From assembly GCA_040220235.1 (NCBI GenBank), contig JAVJTO010000042.1: DNA of 41,022 nt; one strand, written 5' to 3'. This document shows positions 911-11,471 of the stretch, in pieces. The stretch comes from Coleofasciculus sp. B1-GNL1-01 (GTDB taxonomy: Bacteria; Cyanobacteriota; Cyanobacteriia; Cyanobacteriales; Coleofasciculaceae). A program made the position numbers and the translations under genes. Numbering within the stretch: the first letter of the stretch is position 1; every line of letters begins with the position of its first letter. The notes under the pieces are model-generated. The model was not told where the DNA came from and did not search any database. It worked only from the letters and a program-made list of their open reading frames with translations.

Positions 911-983
911 GGCTAGTAGATCCACTCTCTTGGTTGTACATTCTTGATTATAACTTGTAACTACACCAGCGCGAAGCGCTATA
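353..983 (-). mobile_element. IS630-family element remnant (one end plus 5' part of transposase)
   Basis: Minus-strand end TATAGCGCTTCGCG near 983 fits a TA target. Transposase homology runs 910->353 and is cut by the ISL3. Confidence 0.75.
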
Positions 984-1387
984 CCATCAAGCTTATTTAC
1001 CCCGAATATCAGCAAGGGAACAGATACGAAGAGTTACGTGAAAAAATTATTGATCAACTGCTTCGGAGTTGCGAAATAGTTCAAGGCAGGGACTGGGATG
1101 CAGTGCTAGGCGATTTTGAAGGTTATGACTCAGTGCCAATTATGACTATCCATAAAAGTAAGGGCTTAGAGCATCATACTGTAATTTTTGTTGGGCTGGA
1201 CGACGATGCATGGTGGAGTTTTCCGAATCAACCTGAAGAATCTCGTTGTGCTTTCTTCGTAGCGTTATCGCGTGCAAAGCAACGTATTATTTTCACTTAC
1301 TGTAAGCAACGTAGTCAAGGGAGGAATAAAATCTCTTCTCTCTATGATATTCTGAATAAGGCTGGAGTGAAAAATGAGCAAATTTAA
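984..1387 (+). pseudogene. C-terminal fragment of UvrD/SF1 helicase, 5' part displaced by IS630
   Basis: Motif V IMTIHKSKGLE..VIFVG and motif VI EESRCAFFVALSRAK are present; no Walker motifs. The first codons of track ORF 944..1387 lie inside the IS end. Confidence 0.85.
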
Positions 1388-1497: not shown

Positions 1498-1785
1498 ATG
1501 CAAAGCCAGATAACCTACACCCAAGCGTGTAGTAATTTTGACAAAATTTATGAAGAGGCTATTGCCAGCCGCGAAGCCGTCATTGTTACTCGTGATGGTT
1601 CTGAGAGTGTCGCGATTATTCCGATCAACGAACTGAACCGCATCATAGAAACAGCTTATTTATTTCAGTCACCAGAGAATGCAGCGCGTCTGCTTGCGGC
1701 GATACAACGTGCCAAGGCGCGGACTTTTCCGCCTCGCAGTATAGACGATTTACGTCAGGAGTTTGGACTTGGCGAAGAAGCGTAA
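1498..1785 (+). CDS. yefM: Phd/YefM family antitoxin
   Basis: ITYTQA..NFDKI..EAVIVTR..ETAYLFQSPENAARL pattern; overlaps the downstream toxin gene. Confidence 0.92.
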   Translation: MQSQITYTQACSNFDKIYEEAIASREAVIVTRDGSESVAIIPINELNRIIETAYLFQSPENAARLLAAIQRAKARTFPPRSIDDLRQEFGLGEEA

Positions 1786-2122
1786 AACGTCTCAATCGGA
1801 GTATCCAGAATCTGAACCTCCCCAGTCTGAACCCGCTCAGGAAGAGAGATTAGAACGTGATCTTGTGTTCGACTCCCAATTTCTGGAAGATCTGGCTTAC
1901 TGGGTACAGACAAATAGAAAAATTGCACTCCGGCTTTTATCGTTAGTAGAACAGATAAGCCGTTATCCCTTTACAGGAACAGGAAAACCTGAACGATTGA
2001 AGTATCAGGATGCTAATATCTGGTCGCGCCGTTTAACTCAAGCTGATCGCATCGTTTATATGGTGAGTGATGACCGCATTGATTTTCTCCAAGCTCGATA
2101 CCACTATAGCGATCGCGGATAA
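1763..2122 (+). CDS. yoeB: Txe/YoeB family toxin (start may be TTG 1769)
   Basis: FLEDLAYW..PFTGTGKPERLKY..WSRRL..DRIVY..ARYHY motifs. Confidence 0.92.
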   Translation: MDLAKKRKTSQSEYPESEPPQSEPAQEERLERDLVFDSQFLEDLAYWVQTNRKIALRLLSLVEQISRYPFTGTGKPERLKYQDANIWSRRLTQADRIVYMVSDDRIDFLQARYHYSDRG

Positions 2123-2279
2123 TTGAGATAAGAGAACTCTCGCCAGCGATGACACCTTGTTATAGAGCGTTTTCTTTCCTCGATATGAATACATAGGAGA
2201 ACTAAGGCTGCTAGACAAATTTCATGATTTACAATACGAGGTACAGAGCGATTGGTTTTCAAATCACAGCGATACGATC

Positions 2280-4322
2280 ATGCATTTTAAGTTTTCACCC
2301 AATATCCTGAATAGATTAGGTGAAGAACTGATTCCTAATCCTGACCAAGGAATTATCGAATTGGTGAAGAATTCTTATGATGCTGATGCGACCCAATGTA
2401 CAGTAGAGCTTATCAATACTGACACCACAGGTGGTTCCATCCTGATTTCAGATAACGGTATTGGTATGGATCTCGCGGCTATTAGTGAGGGATGGTTTGT
2501 ATTAGGTCGGTCAAAAAAAGCTGCCCGCGAACCTACTGCTCTGGGACGTTTACCTGTTGGTGATAAAGGATTAGGTCGGTTAGCTGCGTTGAGACAAGGG
2601 TCGAAAGTACACTTAAAAACCCGACCTAAAAATGAACCTGAAGTTGAGTATTCTCTGACTATTAATTGGCAAGATTTTGAGCAAGCATCTGTTGTGGAAG
2701 ACATTTCCTTCAATGTCCAAAAAGATATGACTAACTCGCCACAAGGAACTGAAATTTTCATTCAGGATTTAAGTATAAAGTTTGGTCGGCGAGAGGTAAA
2801 AAGATTAGCAAGAGAACTTTTATTCTTGGCAGATCCATTTGATAGTCGTGTCTCTTTCCGCCCTAGGCTGATTGCTCCAGAATTTGCTGATCTTGAAAAA
2901 CAAGTCAATGAGTCTTATTTGAAGGATGCTGAATATCATTTGAAGTCGTCAGTTAATGGAAATGGAGTTGTAGAAGCCTCCGTATTAGACTGGAAAGAAA
3001 ACTTGCTATTTCAGGCAAAGGATAGTGATATTTCTCAAGAAAACTACAAAACAGTACCCGCAAAATTTGAGTTATGGGTATTTTTACTAAATCCTCAAAA
3101 TTTCTCTGCAAAAACAGCTTCTTTCGGACAGGTTAGAGAATGGCTATCAGAAGTTGGTAATGTTCATTTATACCACAGGGGTTTGCGGGTGAAACCCTAT
3201 GGCGACCAAGGAGATGATTGGCTGAAATTAAATTATGCACGAGCAAGAAACCCAGAAGTACGTCCCTCGACCAGTACTGTTATTGGTCGGATAATTGTCA
3301 ATGATCCTGATGATCGGTTGATCCAAAAGACCGATAGACTAGGTTTTATAGAAAATGAAGCTTTTATTGAGCTAAAGCGCTTTGCCATTGATGTATTGAA
3401 CTGGATGGCAAAAGAGAGGCTTAAACAAACTGAAAATAAACGACAAATAGTCAAACAAGAATCGAGTCGGGATGTCATTTCTGCTAAAAGAAATATTGAA
3501 AGTGTTATTGAAAAAGCGGTGCCACAGCAATCCCGTGACACAGTACGCAAGGTAATTCAACGGTACGAAGAGGTAAAAGAGCGTGAAACAAAAGCACTAC
3601 GGGAAGATCTTCAACTCTATCGAAGTCTGGCGACAGCCGGAACAACAGCAGCCGTTTTTGCTCATGAGTCTGGTAAACCTGTCACGTTAATCGAGAAAGT
3701 CGCTAAACGAATAGAAAAAAAAGGTCAAGAACTACCAGGAGAGATATATTTCAAATCTTTTGCAAAACCAGTAGAGATCCTTCATAAAGTCAGCAAGTCG
3801 TTACTGAGTTTTTCCAGGTTTCCTTTGCATTTATTAAAGCGAGAAAAGCGTAAAACGGGTCGTGTTGAGGTTAGCCTTGTCATTGATGATATACTTGAAC
3901 TATTTTCTCCTTTTCTTAAAGACAGCAAAATAGAGGTAGTAAAAAGTAGTATTAATAATCAGTATTTTATTCTCGGAAGTACGGCTCTCTTAGAAGCGAT
4001 TATTACGAATATTTTGACTAATACCATTAATGCTTTTAATGTAGAAGGTTCACGTACAGAAGGACGCCAGGTAAGGATCGTTACTGAAATTATCGAAAGT
4101 TACGTGCAGATCAAAATTTTAGATAATGGTTTAGGAATTAGAGATATAAACTTAAATGACATTTGGTTACCGGGTCAAACAACTAAACCAGGTGGGACAG
4201 GATTGGGACTAACTATAGTTAAAGATTCAGTGACTGACTTGGGAGGAAAAGTGCAGGCAATTGCTCAGGGAGAATTAGGTGGAGCAGAATTTATCATAGA
4301 ACTACCACTTGTTGGAGGTTAG
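2280..4322 (+). CDS. MORC-like GHKL ATPase fused to C-terminal histidine kinase
   Basis: N-terminal GHKL motifs ELVKNSYDADA, DNGIGM, GDKGLGR, GTEI. Charged coiled-coil linker. H-box FAHESGKP, N-box NILTNTINA, G1 DNGLGI, G2 GTGLGL. Confidence 0.88.
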   Translation: MHFKFSPNILNRLGEELIPNPDQGIIELVKNSYDADATQCTVELINTDTTGGSILISDNGIGMDLAAISEGWFVLGRSKKAAREPTALGRLPVGDKGLGRLAALRQGSKVHLKTRPKNEPEVEYSLTINWQDFEQASVVEDISFNVQKDMTNSPQGTEIFIQDLSIKFGRREVKRLARELLFLADPFDSRVSFRPRLIAPEFADLEKQVNESYLKDAEYHLKSSVNGNGVVEASVLDWKENLLFQAKDSDISQENYKTVPAKFELWVFLLNPQNFSAKTASFGQVREWLSEVGNVHLYHRGLRVKPYGDQGDDWLKLNYARARNPEVRPSTSTVIGRIIVNDPDDRLIQKTDRLGFIENEAFIELKRFAIDVLNWMAKERLKQTENKRQIVKQESSRDVISAKRNIESVIEKAVPQQSRDTVRKVIQRYEEVKERETKALREDLQLYRSLATAGTTAAVFAHESGKPVTLIEKVAKRIEKKGQELPGEIYFKSFAKPVEILHKVSKSLLSFSRFPLHLLKREKRKTGRVEVSLVIDDILELFSPFLKDSKIEVVKSSINNQYFILGSTALLEAIITNILTNTINAFNVEGSRTEGRQVRIVTEIIESYVQIKILDNGLGIRDINLNDIWLPGQTTKPGGTGLGLTIVKDSVTDLGGKVQAIAQGELGGAEFIIELPLVGG

Positions 4323-4327
4323 CTGTT

Positions 4328-5026
4328 ATGACAGTTATTCAATCTAATCAGAAAATAGCGATAGTTGATGATGAAGCAGAATTAGCAGAAGCAACTGGCT
4401 GGGAAGTAGAGGACGCTGGGTATGAACCTTTTTTAGTCGTCACGGGTCATTTTACAAACGTCAATGATTTAGCCTCAGTTATTTTAGAAAATACTCAAGG
4501 TGCTATTTGTGATAATCGCTTGACTAATTCTGGACTGGCTAATTTTTCGGGTGCTGAATTAGTTGCCACCTTGTATGATCTGAAATTTCCATCATTACTG
4601 ATATCTCAGTTTGTGGAAATTGACACTTCTTTTTCCATTAGAAAATGGAGACAAAAAATTCCTGTCTTGTTAAGTCGAGACAAAGCAAATGCGTCAAGTA
4701 TCAGCAAAGGAATTGAAGCTTGTCAACAAGAACTTGCTGGTCATCTGCCAATTACCAGAAAACCTTCTAGAACATTAGTAAGAATTGCCAACGTTGACCA
4801 AGCATCTAATGAACCTGTGGTTGATGCCTTTGTTATTGGTTGGAATCCCCATAAAGCCGTCCGTTTTCCAGCTTCACTGATTCCTGATGCTATTCGAGCT
4901 GATGCCCTAAGAAAAGGTGTCCGTCTATTTGCTCACGTTAATATTGGAGCGGATAATGCCGATGATTTATACTTCGATAAATTTGAGTTAGCACCTGAGC
5001 CAGATGACGATGATGGACTTGCCTGA
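4328..5026 (+). CDS. Receiver (REC) domain protein with uncharacterised beta-rich C-terminal domain
   Basis: IAIVDDE acidic pocket, AICDNRL candidate phospho-Asp, SGAELV helix and LLISQ. Starts 5 bp after the kinase stop. Confidence 0.8.
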   Translation: MTVIQSNQKIAIVDDEAELAEATGWEVEDAGYEPFLVVTGHFTNVNDLASVILENTQGAICDNRLTNSGLANFSGAELVATLYDLKFPSLLISQFVEIDTSFSIRKWRQKIPVLLSRDKANASSISKGIEACQQELAGHLPITRKPSRTLVRIANVDQASNEPVVDAFVIGWNPHKAVRFPASLIPDAIRADALRKGVRLFAHVNIGADNADDLYFDKFELAPEPDDDDGLA

Positions 5027-6026
5027 ACTTATTATTGTAGATGTTGGTCACGGTAATTGTTCTGTTCTCCGAGATACAGAAGGTGTGGTTGTTATTGACT
5101 GTCCCTATGGCAATACATTAAGAGAAATTATTGAGTATAGATCGATTCAATTCATTTCCCATATTTTAATTTCTCATGCAGATGCAGACCATATTGCAGG
5201 TATTGTTAATCTGCTATTAGATGAGAATCTCAAGATACATAATATTCACTTAAATCCTGATGCCATTAAAAAGAGTGAAATTTGGCAGGATCTACGAATT
5301 GCTTTAAAAGATGCCAGAAAACGTTTTGGAACGGTAGTTTCAACGGAATTAACTACAACCAAGTCAGGAACGTTAAATATTGGTCAAGTAGATATACAAA
5401 TTCTGGCTCCAACACCTGAATTGATCCTCGGTGGTGCTGGGGGAAGAGATTTACAAGGGAGGCGATTGACTTCCAACTCCATATCTGTTGTGATTGGCAT
5501 AGTCCATAATTCTCACCGAGTCGCCATATTAGCGGCAGATATTGACAAAATAGGATTGGAAAATCTGCTACAGGACGAACCTGATATCAGCGCGGATATA
5601 CTTGTCTTTCCTCATCATGGCGGAAAACCGGGTGGCGCAGATGGTAAAGCATTTGCTCAAGAGTTATGTGATTTTACAAAGCCTAAGTTGATAATCTTTT
5701 CAATTGATCGCAATCGTTTCAATAATCCTCGTGAAGAAATCATAGAGGGGATAAGCGTATCGGTTCCAGAGGCTCATATTTTGTGTACTCAGCTATCCAA
5801 ACAATGTGCTGAAAATCTGCCCAGTTCTGAACCTATCCATTTAAGTCGTCTTCCGGCTAAAGGATGGTTTAAAAACAGTTGTTGTGGAGGAACTGTCTCA
5901 GTTAATATAAAGGGTGGGGAAACAACTTATACTAAAATTGATTTGCACAAAGCATTTATTGACGATCAAGTGCCTACCCCAATATGTCGGAAGTTTCAGC
6001 CAAGATCTTTGTCCGATTCTAGGTAG
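5004..6026 (+). CDS. ComEC/Rec2-like metallo-beta-lactamase-fold hydrolase (putative nuclease), no TM domain
   Basis: DVGHGNC, IDC, SHADADH (HxDxDH), NSIS, AADI, PHHG and NP motifs; Cys-rich C-terminus. Overlaps the REC gene (ATGs at 5004, 5010, 5013). Confidence 0.88.
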   Translation: MTMMDLPELIIVDVGHGNCSVLRDTEGVVVIDCPYGNTLREIIEYRSIQFISHILISHADADHIAGIVNLLLDENLKIHNIHLNPDAIKKSEIWQDLRIALKDARKRFGTVVSTELTTTKSGTLNIGQVDIQILAPTPELILGGAGGRDLQGRRLTSNSISVVIGIVHNSHRVAILAADIDKIGLENLLQDEPDISADILVFPHHGGKPGGADGKAFAQELCDFTKPKLIIFSIDRNRFNNPREEIIEGISVSVPEAHILCTQLSKQCAENLPSSEPIHLSRLPAKGWFKNSCCGGTVSVNIKGGETTYTKIDLHKAFIDDQVPTPICRKFQPRSLSDSR

Positions 6027-6104
6027 GGCTTGCTGCAACAATTAGAACCCCTTAAAAATAAAGGTTTAGACGAAGATTATGGCAGCTTATGGGGGAACGT
6101 CAGG

Positions 6105-6443
6105 TTAACCTGAGGCAAAATCTGTATATTTTCGTACATTAGGTGCGTGATAAGCCAAGACAATCTCTTGCTTCGGCACTCCTTTTTCAACTAACTGATC
6201 GGCGATCGCGTCTTCTGTGCCATCATGTTGCACCCAAATTTTGCCATCAATGATATCAACATGGATGGCACAACCGTAGATTCGAGTGTTGTTATTTTTC
6301 CAGCCTAAATTGACAAGCTGATAGTGATCGCATTCTCGATCGAAAACAGTTTGACTTTTGATCGGATCATTGGGAGAACGCAACTTCGCCCTTGCCCTCA
6401 GCAAATCCTGAATTAGTTGACGATACCAATCTAATTTATCCAT
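6105..6443 (-). CDS. xisI: XisI protein
   Basis: MDKLDWYRQLI..DHYQLVNLGW..HVDIIDGKIWVQHDGTE..IVLAYH family signature. Confidence 0.93.
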   Translation of the reverse strand: MDKLDWYRQLIQDLLRARAKLRSPNDPIKSQTVFDRECDHYQLVNLGWKNNNTRIYGCAIHVDIIDGKIWVQHDGTEDAIADQLVEKGVPKQEIVLAYHAPNVRKYTDFASG

Positions 6444-6847
6444 TGAGCGATCGCCTCCTTGTCAATATCATAAATGATTAAAGGGATTTGGTTGCGCTGA
6501 ATCACAGTTTGAATGAATGGATACTTGAAAAGCCGTTTATAAATCTCTAATGGAACGGCTAAATATAATCGTCTATCAGCCTCTTCTTCTTCCAAGGCAA
6601 TACGATAGTTAATAAATTGCCCAATGGCAATGTGGAATTCTGAGATTGTCGAAGTTGCCAGGAACGTTTTAATTTCAACAGCAATTTTTTCGCCATCTTT
6701 GGTTGCCGCAATTAACCGCTCTGCACCTAAATCTATATAGAAATCCACAAACCCTAAATCGATGCGATAGGGGTCATGAGTGATTGTCCAGCCCTCATGC
6801 TCAAGGGCAGTTCTAACAAGCTGATGAAAGGCATCTTTTGCCGGCAT
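6431..6847 (-). CDS. xisH: XisH protein (PD-(D/E)xK-like)
   Basis: MPAKDAFH..GWTITHDP..DLGAERLIAA..IAVEIKTF..AIGQFINYR signature. Confidence 0.93.
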   Translation of the reverse strand: MPAKDAFHQLVRTALEHEGWTITHDPYRIDLGFVDFYIDLGAERLIAATKDGEKIAVEIKTFLATSTISEFHIAIGQFINYRIALEEEEADRRLYLAVPLEIYKRLFKYPFIQTVIQRNQIPLIIYDIDKEAIAQWIN

Positions 6848-6867
6848 TGTAAACCTTAGTCAGTTAG

Positions 6868-6986
6868 TAGTGACGTGGCACACCTTATTTGATGAATTAC
6901 AATTATATCCAGAAACCGTAGGGGCGCAGGTTGTGCGCGTTCAATGGTCACATCTATCCCACAATTTTAGCTGTGTCAGGTCAGTA
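6868..6986. mobile_element. MITE-like element (copy 1) carrying a GTAG REP-like palindrome
   Basis: Imperfect terminal inverted repeats TAGTGACGTGGCAC / GTGTCAGGTCAGTA. Both arms match 8808..8942 in reverse orientation. Confidence 0.65.
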
Positions 6987-7074
6987 GAATTTGTTCGGCA
7001 AAGCCACAATTCACTATCTTAGCCCTCGCTGGTGCGTTACGCTGTCGTTGATGGGGCGTAGACTGACCTAAGAG

Positions 7075-7167
7075 GAATGGCACTGACTGGTATGCTGGTG
7101 GGCAATGCCCACCCTACGGTAGCTCAAGGGTTTTGGTGTTCCCAAAATGCTTATTTCAGTGCTATTC
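7075..7167. mobile_element. 93-bp MITE with 10-bp target-site duplication
   Basis: TIRs GAATGGCACTGA / TCAGTGCTATTC, flanked by exact GACCTAAGAG at 7065-7074 and 7168-7177. Internal palindrome GGTGGGCAATGCCCACCCTAC. Confidence 0.85.
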
Positions 7168-7319
7168 GACCTAAGAGCGATCGCACATCCTCCAGGAACC
7201 ATGCGATCGCTCTTTTAATGGTCAGATTCATGCTACAGTCGCGATAAAATAGAAGGCTCCAGCATCTATCCCCATAGATGACTGGTGATTATCTTTAATC
7301 CTATAACGACCTTTTGCAG

Positions 7320-9757: not shown

Positions 9758-10894
9758 ATGTTGACTAGAATTTACATTGATAACTTTAGATGTCTTGTCA
9801 ACTTTGAGGTAAAACTTGAGAACAATATCAGTCTGCTTTTAGGCGGTAACGGATCGGGTAAAACCACTGTATTTAATGTAATTGAAAAACTCCAAAAATT
9901 CATAATCGGCAATATAAAGGTTTCAGACCTTTTTCCAAGTTCAGATTTAACCCGATGGGAGACTCGTTCAATTCAGAAATTTGAACTGGAAATTAAGGGA
10001 AATGGCGGCATCTATAACTACTCCCTAGAAATTGAACATCAAGGAGATTATTTTCCCTCAAGAATGCGTCATGAGTCTTTAAGCTTTGATGGACAACCAC
10101 TCTCAACGTTTAGTATTCAGATCGAGCAAGGTAAGCCTGTCGGTCAAGCAACTATCTATAATGATGATCCAACTCGACAAGGCGCATTTCTTCCATTTGT
10201 TGATTGGTCACGTTCTGTAGTAGGTTTTGTGTATGAAAGGCAGGAAAATAAAAAACTGACTTGGTTTAAAAAACGGATATCTAATTTTTTTATTGTACAC
10301 ATCAATCCCTTGTCTATGGGTGAAGAGAGTCGTCAGGAAGATACCCATCCAGCATGGGACATGTCAAATTATGCAGCTTGGTATAGTTATCTGTCTGGCG
10401 AGCAAGGTAAGATTTTTAATCTGACCATAAAACTAAGAGAAATTATTGATGGATTCGATGCGTTTAGAAATAAGCCCATTGGAGATGCAAAAATCTTATC
10501 ATTATCTTTCCCATCGTTAAGTGAAGAACCTTACAAGCTGAGCGAAATATCTGACGGTCAACGAGTTCTGATTGCCCTCTATACCTTAATATATTGTGCG
10601 CCGGATGAAGATTATACCTTGTGTATTGATGAACCGGAAAATTATCTCGCCTTACCGGAAATACAGCCTTGGCTGAATACACTTTTTGATCAATGTTCAG
10701 GTGCAGATAGTCACGGACAAGCCATTTTAATCTCCCATCACCCTGCACTCATTAACTATTTGGCTAGTAGTTCTGGTTATTGGTTTGAGAGAGCCAATGA
10801 AGGAATTATACGTCTACAGTCCATTACCGACCAACAAGATACAGGATTATCACTGGCTAAACTAATCGAACTGGGATGGATTTATGACGAGTAA
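9758..10894 (+). CDS. ABC-type (AAA_21-like) soluble ATPase
   Basis: IDNFRCL start, Walker A GGNGSGKTT, signature ISDGQR, Walker B LCIDEPEN, H-loop ISHHP; no TM segments. Confidence 0.9.
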   Translation: MLTRIYIDNFRCLVNFEVKLENNISLLLGGNGSGKTTVFNVIEKLQKFIIGNIKVSDLFPSSDLTRWETRSIQKFELEIKGNGGIYNYSLEIEHQGDYFPSRMRHESLSFDGQPLSTFSIQIEQGKPVGQATIYNDDPTRQGAFLPFVDWSRSVVGFVYERQENKKLTWFKKRISNFFIVHINPLSMGEESRQEDTHPAWDMSNYAAWYSYLSGEQGKIFNLTIKLREIIDGFDAFRNKPIGDAKILSLSFPSLSEEPYKLSEISDGQRVLIALYTLIYCAPDEDYTLCIDEPENYLALPEIQPWLNTLFDQCSGADSHGQAILISHHPALINYLASSSGYWFERANEGIIRLQSITDQQDTGLSLAKLIELGWIYDE

Positions 10895-11471
10895 AGACCA
10901 TAAACCAGAAGTCGTTATTTTATGCGAAGATATTGCTCACGAACGATTCATCAGACAGTATCTTATCTGTTGTGGATTCGAGGAGCGCAAAATCAAAAAT
11001 TTTCCTAATCTCAAAGGAAGGAAAGTCAACAATAATAATGACTTCGTTATCAAGCATTATGCACCTCTGGTTAAAAGCTACAGACGCAAAAATTTTCAAA
11101 ATCGTGCCATAGTCGTGATGATTGATGCCGATACGAATAGCATAAATGACATATTACGCTCTTTGCATATAGCATTAGACGAGCCGGAAGGCAAGTTAAA
11201 TCGAGACCCAAGATTACCTAACGAGAAAATTGCCATTTTTGTACCAGCCAGAAATATTGAAACCTGGTTTTATTATATTAGTATTGAACGCAATTGCGAT
11301 GAAACGACAGATTATAAGAATTCTCCCGCAATTAGAAAATGGGATAGCATCGATTTAGCTAAAGCCTCGGCAACAAAATTATCAAGGGAAATCTGTCCTC
11401 AAGGACTTGATAGTAATGCCCTGTCTTCCTTACATCATGCCTGTGATGAGTTGAGAAGACTTCTCGATTAG
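10884..11471 (+). CDS. TOPRIM-like protein (DUF4276/RloB/AriB-like) partnered with the ATPase
   Basis: VILCED, MIDAD (DxD) and RNIETWF motifs; 11-bp overlap with the ATPase gene. Confidence 0.75.
   Translation: MTSKDHKPEVVILCEDIAHERFIRQYLICCGFEERKIKNFPNLKGRKVNNNNDFVIKHYAPLVKSYRRKNFQNRAIVVMIDADTNSINDILRSLHIALDEPEGKLNRDPRLPNEKIAIFVPARNIETWFYYISIERNCDETTDYKNSPAIRKWDSIDLAKASATKLSREICPQGLDSNALSSLHHACDELRRLLD

Follow-up and report, generated by a model that had tools for sequence, protein, structure and literature searches.

The window analysed here, a stretch of 41,022 nucleotides from Coleofasciculus sp. B1-GNL1-01 (contig JAVJTO010000042.1), carries on its plus strand three adjacent genes that encode a GHKL ATPase-histidine kinase (gene 1, positions 2280-4322, 680 aa), a receiver protein (gene 2, 4328-5026, 232 aa) and a hydrolase of the metallo-beta-lactamase (MBL) fold (gene 3, 5004-6026, 340 aa). 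A first-pass annotation, made from the letters alone, had described these open reading frames (ORFs) as tightly coupled and the block as AT-rich and free of HIP1 sites, and both descriptions were borne out. Genes 1 and 2 are separated by a gap of 5 bp and genes 2 and 3 overlap by 23 bp. The GC content of the block is 0.39, compared with 0.455 genome-wide, and it contains 0 of the 36 HIP1 sites found in the whole window; among 2227 genome tiles of the same size 166 were HIP1-free, 26 were as AT-rich and 10 were both. Since the largest 19-residue hydropathy mean was at most 1.47 in each of the three proteins, none of them has a transmembrane segment. Paralogues of the trio were not detected in its own genome by tblastn, and a scan for promoters (10, with 12.3 expected by chance) and terminators (3, with 4.0 expected) did not rise above chance. 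Three metatranscriptome assemblies covered the trio at a likeness of at least 90%, as contigs that may hold DNA and are no proof of transcription.

The three proteins and a predicted receiver-hydrolase contact

Gene 1 encodes two ATP-binding modules. The N-terminal GHKL ATPase (residues ~1-160) is paraMORC/MutL-like and matches Pfam HATPase_c_3 at residues 24-156 (E 4e-21). A middle region with a conserved QKTDR loop, which we take to be S5-like from its position and from the usual GHKL architecture, is followed by a helical linker, the H-box with an intact H462-E463 and the ATPase domain of the kinase (residues 570-677, Pfam HATPase_c, E 1e-18). The motif residues E27/N31/D58/K96, N577/N581, D615 and G639 are intact as well, and the key residues are invariant in 42 of 42 cyanobacterial copies. 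Residues 4-184 matched the BbrUII/HgiDII restriction-enzyme model NF050001 with an E of 9e-22, below the cut-off of that model, and a profile of the gene 1 family matched MORC2 structures at 25-123 (E 8e-6) and histidine kinases at 440-681. The earlier reading of gene 1 as an intact histidine kinase with two ATP-binding modules and no transmembrane segment therefore agrees with the Pfam matches, the motifs and the hydropathy. A distant two-ATPase kinase of the same type (26-28% identity) was observed on 41 Campylobacter plasmid records.

Gene 2 gave no match in Pfam, PADLOC or NCBIfam. In its AlphaFold model (pLDDT 91) residues 5-139 adopt a receiver fold (best Z 13.6, root-mean-square deviation 3.1, 120 residues aligned) with the expected D14, D15, D62 and S93; in 144 diverse receiver sequences the three aspartates are kept in 94-97%, and Thr or Ser occupies position 93 in all of them. 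The receiver is atypical at the beta-5 position, where a Lys is usual: gene 2 has Arg117 there, cyanobacterial copies in general have Arg or Lys, and sequences from elsewhere mostly have Pro. The first-pass annotation had called gene 2 a receiver without a helix-turn-helix output; the receiver fold stood, and no winged helix-turn-helix (wHTH) was detected, but an output domain exists. It is an OB/cold-shock-like barrel (residues ~143-226) that is five-stranded in the model and is followed by an acidic tail. The C-terminal 84 residues modelled alone reached a pLDDT of 95 and matched EF-P best (Z 7.4, root-mean-square deviation 3.1, 69 residues aligned), followed by Unr cold-shock domains, eIF5A and CspB. 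Most of the 50 fold matches listed are, as we recognise them, OB-fold proteins. Foldseek agreed weakly (E of at least 0.027 only), and a search of the ESM Atlas with this domain gave no usable match. R144, W172 and N205 of the OB domain are invariant and R148 is nearly so. Solo pieces corresponding to the OB domain plus tail (receiver residues 143-232, 66-67% identical) were observed at two loci with no kinase or MBL gene (L041:8506-8781 and L042:9992-10270), and may be remnants or solo modulators.

Gene 3 matches Pfam Lactamase_B and carries the motifs H58-x-D60-x-D62-H63 and PHHG. H58, D60, D62, H63, D179, H204 and H205 are invariant across 75 aligned homologues. The closest solved structures are ComEC domains (E 5e-7 and 2e-6), and the motif spacing is that of ComEC H598-x-D600-x-D602-H603, D700 and H725, with 25 residues from D to H. 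Compared with full ComEC the protein is short and lacks transmembrane segments, and it scored 24.7 bits on TIGR00361, for which the cut-off is 190. The claim of a soluble HxDxDH/PHHG hydrolase was thus confirmed, and gene 3 is a probable nuclease effector. A C-terminal extension rich in Cys and His has conserved C261, C268, H279, C293, C294, H315 and C328 (within residues 261-328); the set is absent from the ComEC alignments examined and may be a structural metal site.

The first-pass annotation had proposed modelling the receiver together with the hydrolase, and ESMFold2 predicted that the two bind directly. The pair scored 0.74 and the best of three controls 0.00; contact agreement between runs was at least 93% and the pLDDT of the partners at least 88. 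Of 157 solved complexes 116 attained the score mark used, as did 2 of the 215 mismatched pairs, though these counts apply only roughly to the alignments used here. On the gene 2 side all listed contacts lie at residue 142 or beyond, in the OB domain and acidic tail, and W172 and R148 fall within the predicted interface. On the MBL side the interface comprises residues 35-41, 61-74, 83-103 and 112-114, adjoins the metal motif and uses helices 61-74 and 92-103. According to the accessible text of a study of ComEC (PMC12455585), its MBL domain alone has no measurable DNA affinity, and a tethered OB domain raises the MBL rate ~7-fold while free OB has no effect. Since the ComEC enzyme is weak alone and helped by a tethered OB domain, a phosphorylation-controlled OB partner is plausible as a switch. 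The predicted contact could equally be inhibitory.

Mobility, methylase-bearing relatives and surroundings of the trio

Co-occurrence of the three genes in other genomes, which the first-pass annotation had set as a test of its proposal, was found. A scan of GTDB with the receiver alignment returned 42 loci; those named to organism are all from Cyanobacteriota and three are labelled 'uncultured bacterium'. Kinase, receiver and MBL genes follow in this order at 39 of the 42 (with broken genes in two of the 39), one further contig ends in the receiver, and two loci hold the OB piece only. Because such a pattern scan favours close relatives, these loci are not the full range of the family: a profile search gave 326 receiver clusters (50% identity) at E<=1e-30, and the trio is also present on plasmids of Bacteroidota and Betaproteobacteria. 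Phage-borne copies were represented by two weak matches only (26% and 69% coverage, ~29-30% identity).

Presence is patchy among close relatives. The receiver occurs in 7 of 401 genomes of the phylum and the kinase in 6 of 9 genomes of the genus, and the loci nearest to the source trio are Coleofasciculus records. In one congener (G401) positions 2163-6103 of the window are missing and the DNA of the yoeB side and the xisI side is joined, a clean empty site at whose junction no target-site duplication was evident by eye. Homology to four other congeners spans 2243 to 6047-6097, and we take 2163..6103, with no strand assigned, as the extent of the cassette; in two congeners the trio lies directly between ppsA and leuC. 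Over 38 loci the density of HIP1 sites falls from 0.81 per kb outside the cassette to 0.04 per kb within it, and GC is lower inside than outside at 36 of the 38. The trio is a conserved mobile unit.

Relatives outside the cyanobacteria carry a methylase gene. On Hymenobacter and Burkholderia plasmids an N6-methylase, the kinase, the receiver and the MBL protein are encoded as one coupled operon, the four-gene Hymenobacter copy lying on NZ_CP095070.1. There were 18 non-cyanobacterial loci with a kinase of the MBL clade (see below), two of them with too little upstream DNA. An N6-adenine methylase of one family was present at 15 of the 16 informative loci, directly upstream on the same strand at 14 (at one of these cut by the contig end) and on the opposite strand at one; the remaining locus, L057, has the trio with a different methylase. 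The same family heads more distant loci that consist of a kinase, a short receiver and an HNH nuclease, observed in Deinococcus (with XRE genes in front), in Klebsiella (where the kinase is frameshifted and a ppl defence gene lies nearby) and at metagenome loci L076, L100 and L120. Methylases of MBL-type and HNH-type loci are intermixed on the methylase tree, and the named close homologues of the Klebsiella methylase are mostly from Gammaproteobacteria, the reported range of the defence system Ambrosia. The receivers of the HNH-type loci scored 16-37 bits on the receiver family profile; specific kinship is only suggested, because just three of seven, plus L055, beat the best generic own-genome score of 20. 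Two other settings of the methylase family were observed. At L132:68-1992 it lies directly 3' of a BsuBI/PstI-type restriction endonuclease gene and is followed by an HNH-clade kinase, which hints that the family originated in a type II system. At L140:8645-12059 (G040) it stands without a kinase, preceded by two unnamed genes in the same orientation (373 and 330 aa), and may belong to a further defence operon.

The methylase was not found with the trio in cyanobacteria. In the kinase tree 44 cyanobacterial-type sequences (the window included; L086 repeats L020) form one fully supported clade, spanning many families, within the 61-member MBL clade; both clades had an SH-aLRT of 100 in a 34-row kinase tree. 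At least 1.5 kb of upstream DNA was available for 37 of the 44 and held the methylase in none. The family profile gave generic scores only, at best 43 bits in the own genome and 39 bits in 25 other carrier genomes; many of these 26 are drafts, and for this reason we say 'not found' rather than 'absent'. The single member of the family among the 401 phylum genomes scored 486 bits and has no HIP1 in the surrounding 13 kb and no kinase of this family. Nor was a conserved fourth gene replacing the methylase detected at the 42 cyanobacterial loci, where 295 neighbouring ORFs fell into 209 clusters. Since the methylase is present in the HNH clade as well as in several MBL lineages, its single loss from the cyanobacterial branch with the trio kept intact is the most economical history, the base of the MBL kinase clade being without a firm branching order. 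The trio thus represents a four-gene cassette in its cyanobacterial, methylase-less form and not a primary three-gene design. Kinase, receiver and MBL genes are full-length in 41, 42 and 40 of the 42 cyanobacterial loci respectively; a dN/dS of 0.10-0.41 for each gene (13 pairs each, including pairs with dS >1) indicated purifying selection; and no cyanobacterial copy deviates in either ATPase site, at H462 or D62, or in the MBL metal site. This branch offers a natural control for the role of the methylase, with three-gene and four-gene forms side by side.

The neighbours named by the first-pass annotation were all recovered from the ORFs and Pfam. Upstream on the plus strand lie the C-terminal remnant of a GajB/UvrD-like helicase (944..1387) and a yefM-yoeB toxin-antitoxin pair (1498..2122), which in some congeners is 3' of the trio instead; an xisH-xisI pair (6105..6847) follows on the minus strand. 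The helicase remnant, 0.9 kb upstream of the trio, matched GajB of Gabija best (PADLOC, E 9e-47). Insertion sequence (IS) fragments lie at 1-186 and 617-1015, and the remnant abuts an IS630-type fragment, which points to a defence gene that has decayed at this hot spot. Further downstream, between leuC and leuD, an overlapping pair at 9758-11471 (plus strand) encodes a 378-aa ATPase of the AAA_21/AbiEii-like type and, as its second member, a 195-aa protein whose DUF3226 and HEC-01B matches are weak; the pair is present in congener G403 and missing in G401, and is a possible ATPase-nuclease defence pair. A short element at ~6860-7240 recurs many times in congeners and has a very high contig depth in public runs; it is probably a dispersed cyanobacterial repeat.

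We compared 120 neighbouring proteins, drawn from 177 cluster representatives with a preference for genes near the cassette, with 101 ORFs from 19 random stretches of the own genome. Neighbours of mobile, toxin-antitoxin or defence type (toxin-antitoxin, AbiEii-like ATPase, Uma2, TIR/Cap17, integrase, transposase, Par and Mob) numbered 20 of 120 and 5 of 101, respectively (Fisher p 0.009). In Nostoc paludosum (L014:5085-13161) the trio lies between an integrase, a TIR-pYEATS gene and a Cap17-like-TIR gene, and this is the only clear defence island among the cyanobacterial loci. Defence-island enrichment, which the first-pass annotation had named as a test, was thus found in part: mobile and toxin-antitoxin genes are enriched, but named anti-phage domains occur at one locus. 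The neighbourhoods are hot spots of mobile and toxin-antitoxin genes to a greater degree than they are defence islands, and the defence context is moderate overall.

A proposed relay and its alternatives

The trio probably serves defence, whatever the mechanism. With less assurance, and only on balance, we favour the whole of a particular chain: a mobile, Ambrosia-like (paraMORC-kinase) anti-invader cassette acting post-translationally, through clamp sensing, a phosphorelay and activation of a nuclease. A kinase dimer would engage invading or abnormal DNA through its N-terminal GHKL-S5 clamp, and closure of the clamp would drive autophosphorylation of H462 and then transfer to D62 of the receiver, as the intact and invariant residues suggest. 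The receiver, predicted in the modelling with controls to be pre-docked on the MBL protein through its OB domain, would upon phosphorylation re-orient OB domain and tail; the weak ComEC-type nuclease would then be unmasked and/or tethered to DNA and would cut it. Relatives elsewhere have their dedicated N6-adenine methylase before the kinase, and the cyanobacterial branch, having presumably lost it once, would still work. Sensing by the GHKL module and phosphotransfer that switches on an MBL nuclease had already been put forward by the first-pass annotation. Co-occurrence, the invariant residues, the predicted receiver-MBL binding and the precedent of Ambrosia support that part, but the OB output and the four-gene ancestry had been missed.

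Several points weigh against this chain. The neighbour enrichment has a p of 0.07 when the liberal control count of 8/101 is used, its categories were picked after the list had been seen, and its control is one genome; named anti-phage domains (TIR, Cap17) were present in 2 of 120 neighbours, both at L014, and many insertion sites are housekeeping loci. The receiver of gene 2 has no canonical Lys. The OB match at Z 7.4 is modest, in the 'possibly common' range of the tool, and nucleic-acid binding by this domain is putative. Support for the MBL and HNH kinase clades as sisters is weak (0.154 in the kinase tree; SH-aLRT 77 in the 34-row tree). Ambrosia was likened to the trio by its published layout, not by the P. 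aeruginosa protein sequences, and according to the accessible part of its description (bioRxiv 10.1101/2025.09.30.679545) it depends on its methylase and has been proposed to work transcriptionally through a wHTH receiver, both of which the trio lacks. The activity and phenotype of the trio are themselves predictions from sequence.

A possible but distinctly less probable account also places the trio in defence, with the logic of a toxin-antitoxin pair: the receiver-OB protein would inhibit a toxic MBL enzyme, phosphorylation or its loss would free the enzyme, and the cell would be killed or arrested, with RNA, tRNA or a small nucleotide as a conceivable substrate. The predicted contact by OB domain and acidic tail beside the metal-binding helix is compatible with such inhibition, as are the MBL genes broken at three loci (a frameshift at L012, interruptions at L034 and L043) and the reported toxicity of the Detocs effector alone (accessible text of bioRxiv 10.1101/2023.01.24.525353), whereas the acidic tail is missing in many non-cyanobacterial receivers. 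For the substrate, the best matches of the OB domain are to RNA-binding domains (cold-shock, EF-P and eIF5A), and many homologues carry a precomputed PF23023 tag, which we take to denote an Apyc1-like family of cyclic-nucleotide hydrolases; however, the metal motif and the best structural matches are those of ComEC-type DNases, and the partner methylase of the relatives points to DNA.

We consider it unlikely that the trio is a phosphorelay outside defence, carried on mobile DNA and sensing DNA state or stress for repair, DNA uptake or salvage. The frequent insertion among housekeeping genes and the ComEC-like effector would fit, and a related Pectobacterium kinase-receiver pair is induced in plant infection (accessible part of PMC8011034). 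Patchy presence within one genus, the AT-rich and HIP1-poor composition of the cassette over 38 loci, the methylase family common to HNH-type loci and the validated precedent of Ambrosia speak against it.

More doubtful still is an elaboration of the favoured chain in which the GHKL clamp would read host orphan methylation at GATC/CGATCG (the HIP1 core; for HIP1 see the available parts of PMC4390886, PMC5861425 and PMC13756078), tell self from invader and relay to the split OB:MBL nuclease, so that an own methylase would be dispensable. It would fit that 43 of the 44 methylase-less sequences have HIP1-rich surroundings (0.24-1.87 sites per kb; L016 has none), that the own genome has two Dam-family methylases, that the single member of the methylase family among the 401 phylum genomes has HIP1-free surroundings and that L057 has a different methylase. 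On the other side, host lineage and methylase loss are inseparable because the loss is a single event, our analysis yielded no assignment for the target of the lost methylase, and methylation gave phages no protection in Ambrosia, as far as the available preprint text goes (bioRxiv 10.1101/2025.09.30.679545). If true, HIP1 methylation would gain a direct immune reader.

That the trio is a decaying remnant, inactive since the loss of the methylase, is very improbable: Ambrosia without its methylase loses defence (same preprint, available part) and there are broken cyanobacterial copies (L012, L034, L040 and L043; OB piece only at L041 and L042), but the full-length genes, low dN/dS and invariant key residues of one clade across many families appear to have largely refuted it already.

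Comparison with known systems

The libraries of PADLOC 2.0 and NCBIfam 20 do not name the trio. A PADLOC run, as the first-pass annotation had suggested, found no named system that fits: in PADLOC 2.0 the MBL protein had matches of 16-39 bits, the receiver none, and the kinase matches were confined to its first 108 residues, with no strong all-component match to PDC-M48, DRT-associated MBL, Lamassu or Avs1. No description of a GHKL-kinase, receiver and MBL system was found in the literature, most subscription journals lying outside the search. If the trio defends, it is a further defence system for filamentous cyanobacteria, unnamed in these two libraries.

Its parts have several known counterparts, the sources cited below being taken as far as their text was accessible. 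The paraMORC proteins (PMC2292703; VcSduA, PMC12137116; NF050001) share the N-terminal GHKL-S5 module, thought to be a DNA clamp that controls a nuclease; in gene 1 a histidine kinase replaces their C-terminal nuclease domain and the nuclease is a separate protein. With ComEC the trio shares the HxDxDH...D...H metal site with the same spacing and the pairing of an OB fold with an MBL domain (PMC12455585), but it has no membrane channel and its OB and MBL domains are on separate proteins. Because the OB domain of ComEC itself was not among the listed fold matches of the gene 2 barrel, the pairing may be convergent. If the trio defends, the OB-plus-nuclease pair of ComEC has been rebuilt as a phosphorylation switch. 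Detocs (DtcABC; Rousset et al., bioRxiv 10.1101/2023.01.24.525353) likewise has three genes and His-to-Asp phosphotransfer onto a non-transcriptional effector. Its kinase, however, bears TPRs, its first receiver stands alone as a buffer and its effector is fused to a further receiver, whereas the trio has a GHKL clamp with no TPR match, one receiver with an OB domain and a separate MBL protein.

Another counterpart is the HEF_HK/Response_reg_2 pair (PF19191/PF19192; Bellieny-Rabelo et al. 2021, PMC8011034), in which a soluble protein with HATPase_c_3, an H-box (His then Glu) and HATPase_c is encoded next to an atypical receiver and for which an origin from paraMORCs was proposed. The first-pass annotation had cited MORC-kinase fusions with receivers as known; they are described in that paper, but the accessible text of Iyer 2008 has no such passage. 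Unlike the trio, the HEF_HK family goes with C5 methylases and Vsr; PF19191 and PF19192 do not match the trio (E<=0.1), and the main text of PMC8011034 mentions neither lactamase nor cyanobacteria. Response_reg_2 had also been considered as a label for outgroup loci with 400-490-aa partners; three that were tested gave no Pfam match, and the label is tentative.

The first-pass annotation knew of no characterised system of this exact form. No described match was found, but the closest named system, Ambrosia, had gone unmentioned. Ambrosia (AbrR-AbrA-AbrB-AbrC-AbrD) of Pseudomonas aeruginosa comprises an XRE regulator, an N6 methylase, a HATPase/kinase, a REC-wHTH protein and an HNH protein; it protects its host from phages of two groups, and neither any of its genes nor the receiver Asp is dispensable (van den Berg et al., bioRxiv 10.1101/2025.09.30.679545). 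In both systems a HATPase/histidine kinase is followed by a receiver and then a nuclease, and gene 1 has the architecture that defines AbrB. Relatives of the trio carry the N6 methylase family of loci with the Ambrosia layout (L054, L076, L100, L120 and L137), and in the receiver of L054, just as in AbrC, the acceptor Asp is residue 60. In contrast to Ambrosia, the trio has no XRE regulator beside it (yoeB lies upstream) and no conserved fourth gene at the 42 cyanobacterial loci; it lacks the methylase AbrA, its receiver output is an OB barrel where that of AbrC is a wHTH, and its effector is a ComEC-type MBL protein where AbrD is an HNH protein. The kinases of the HNH-type loci are ~27-28% identical to the trio kinase and form a separate clade, and the trio is predicted to bind its receiver directly to the effector, whereas Ambrosia is proposed to work by transcriptional control. 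The trio is therefore not Ambrosia by membership, yet it is like Ambrosia at the kinase-receiver core; if it defends, an Ambrosia-like relay drives a nuclease directly, through a new type of response regulator (receiver plus OB domain), and not through transcription.

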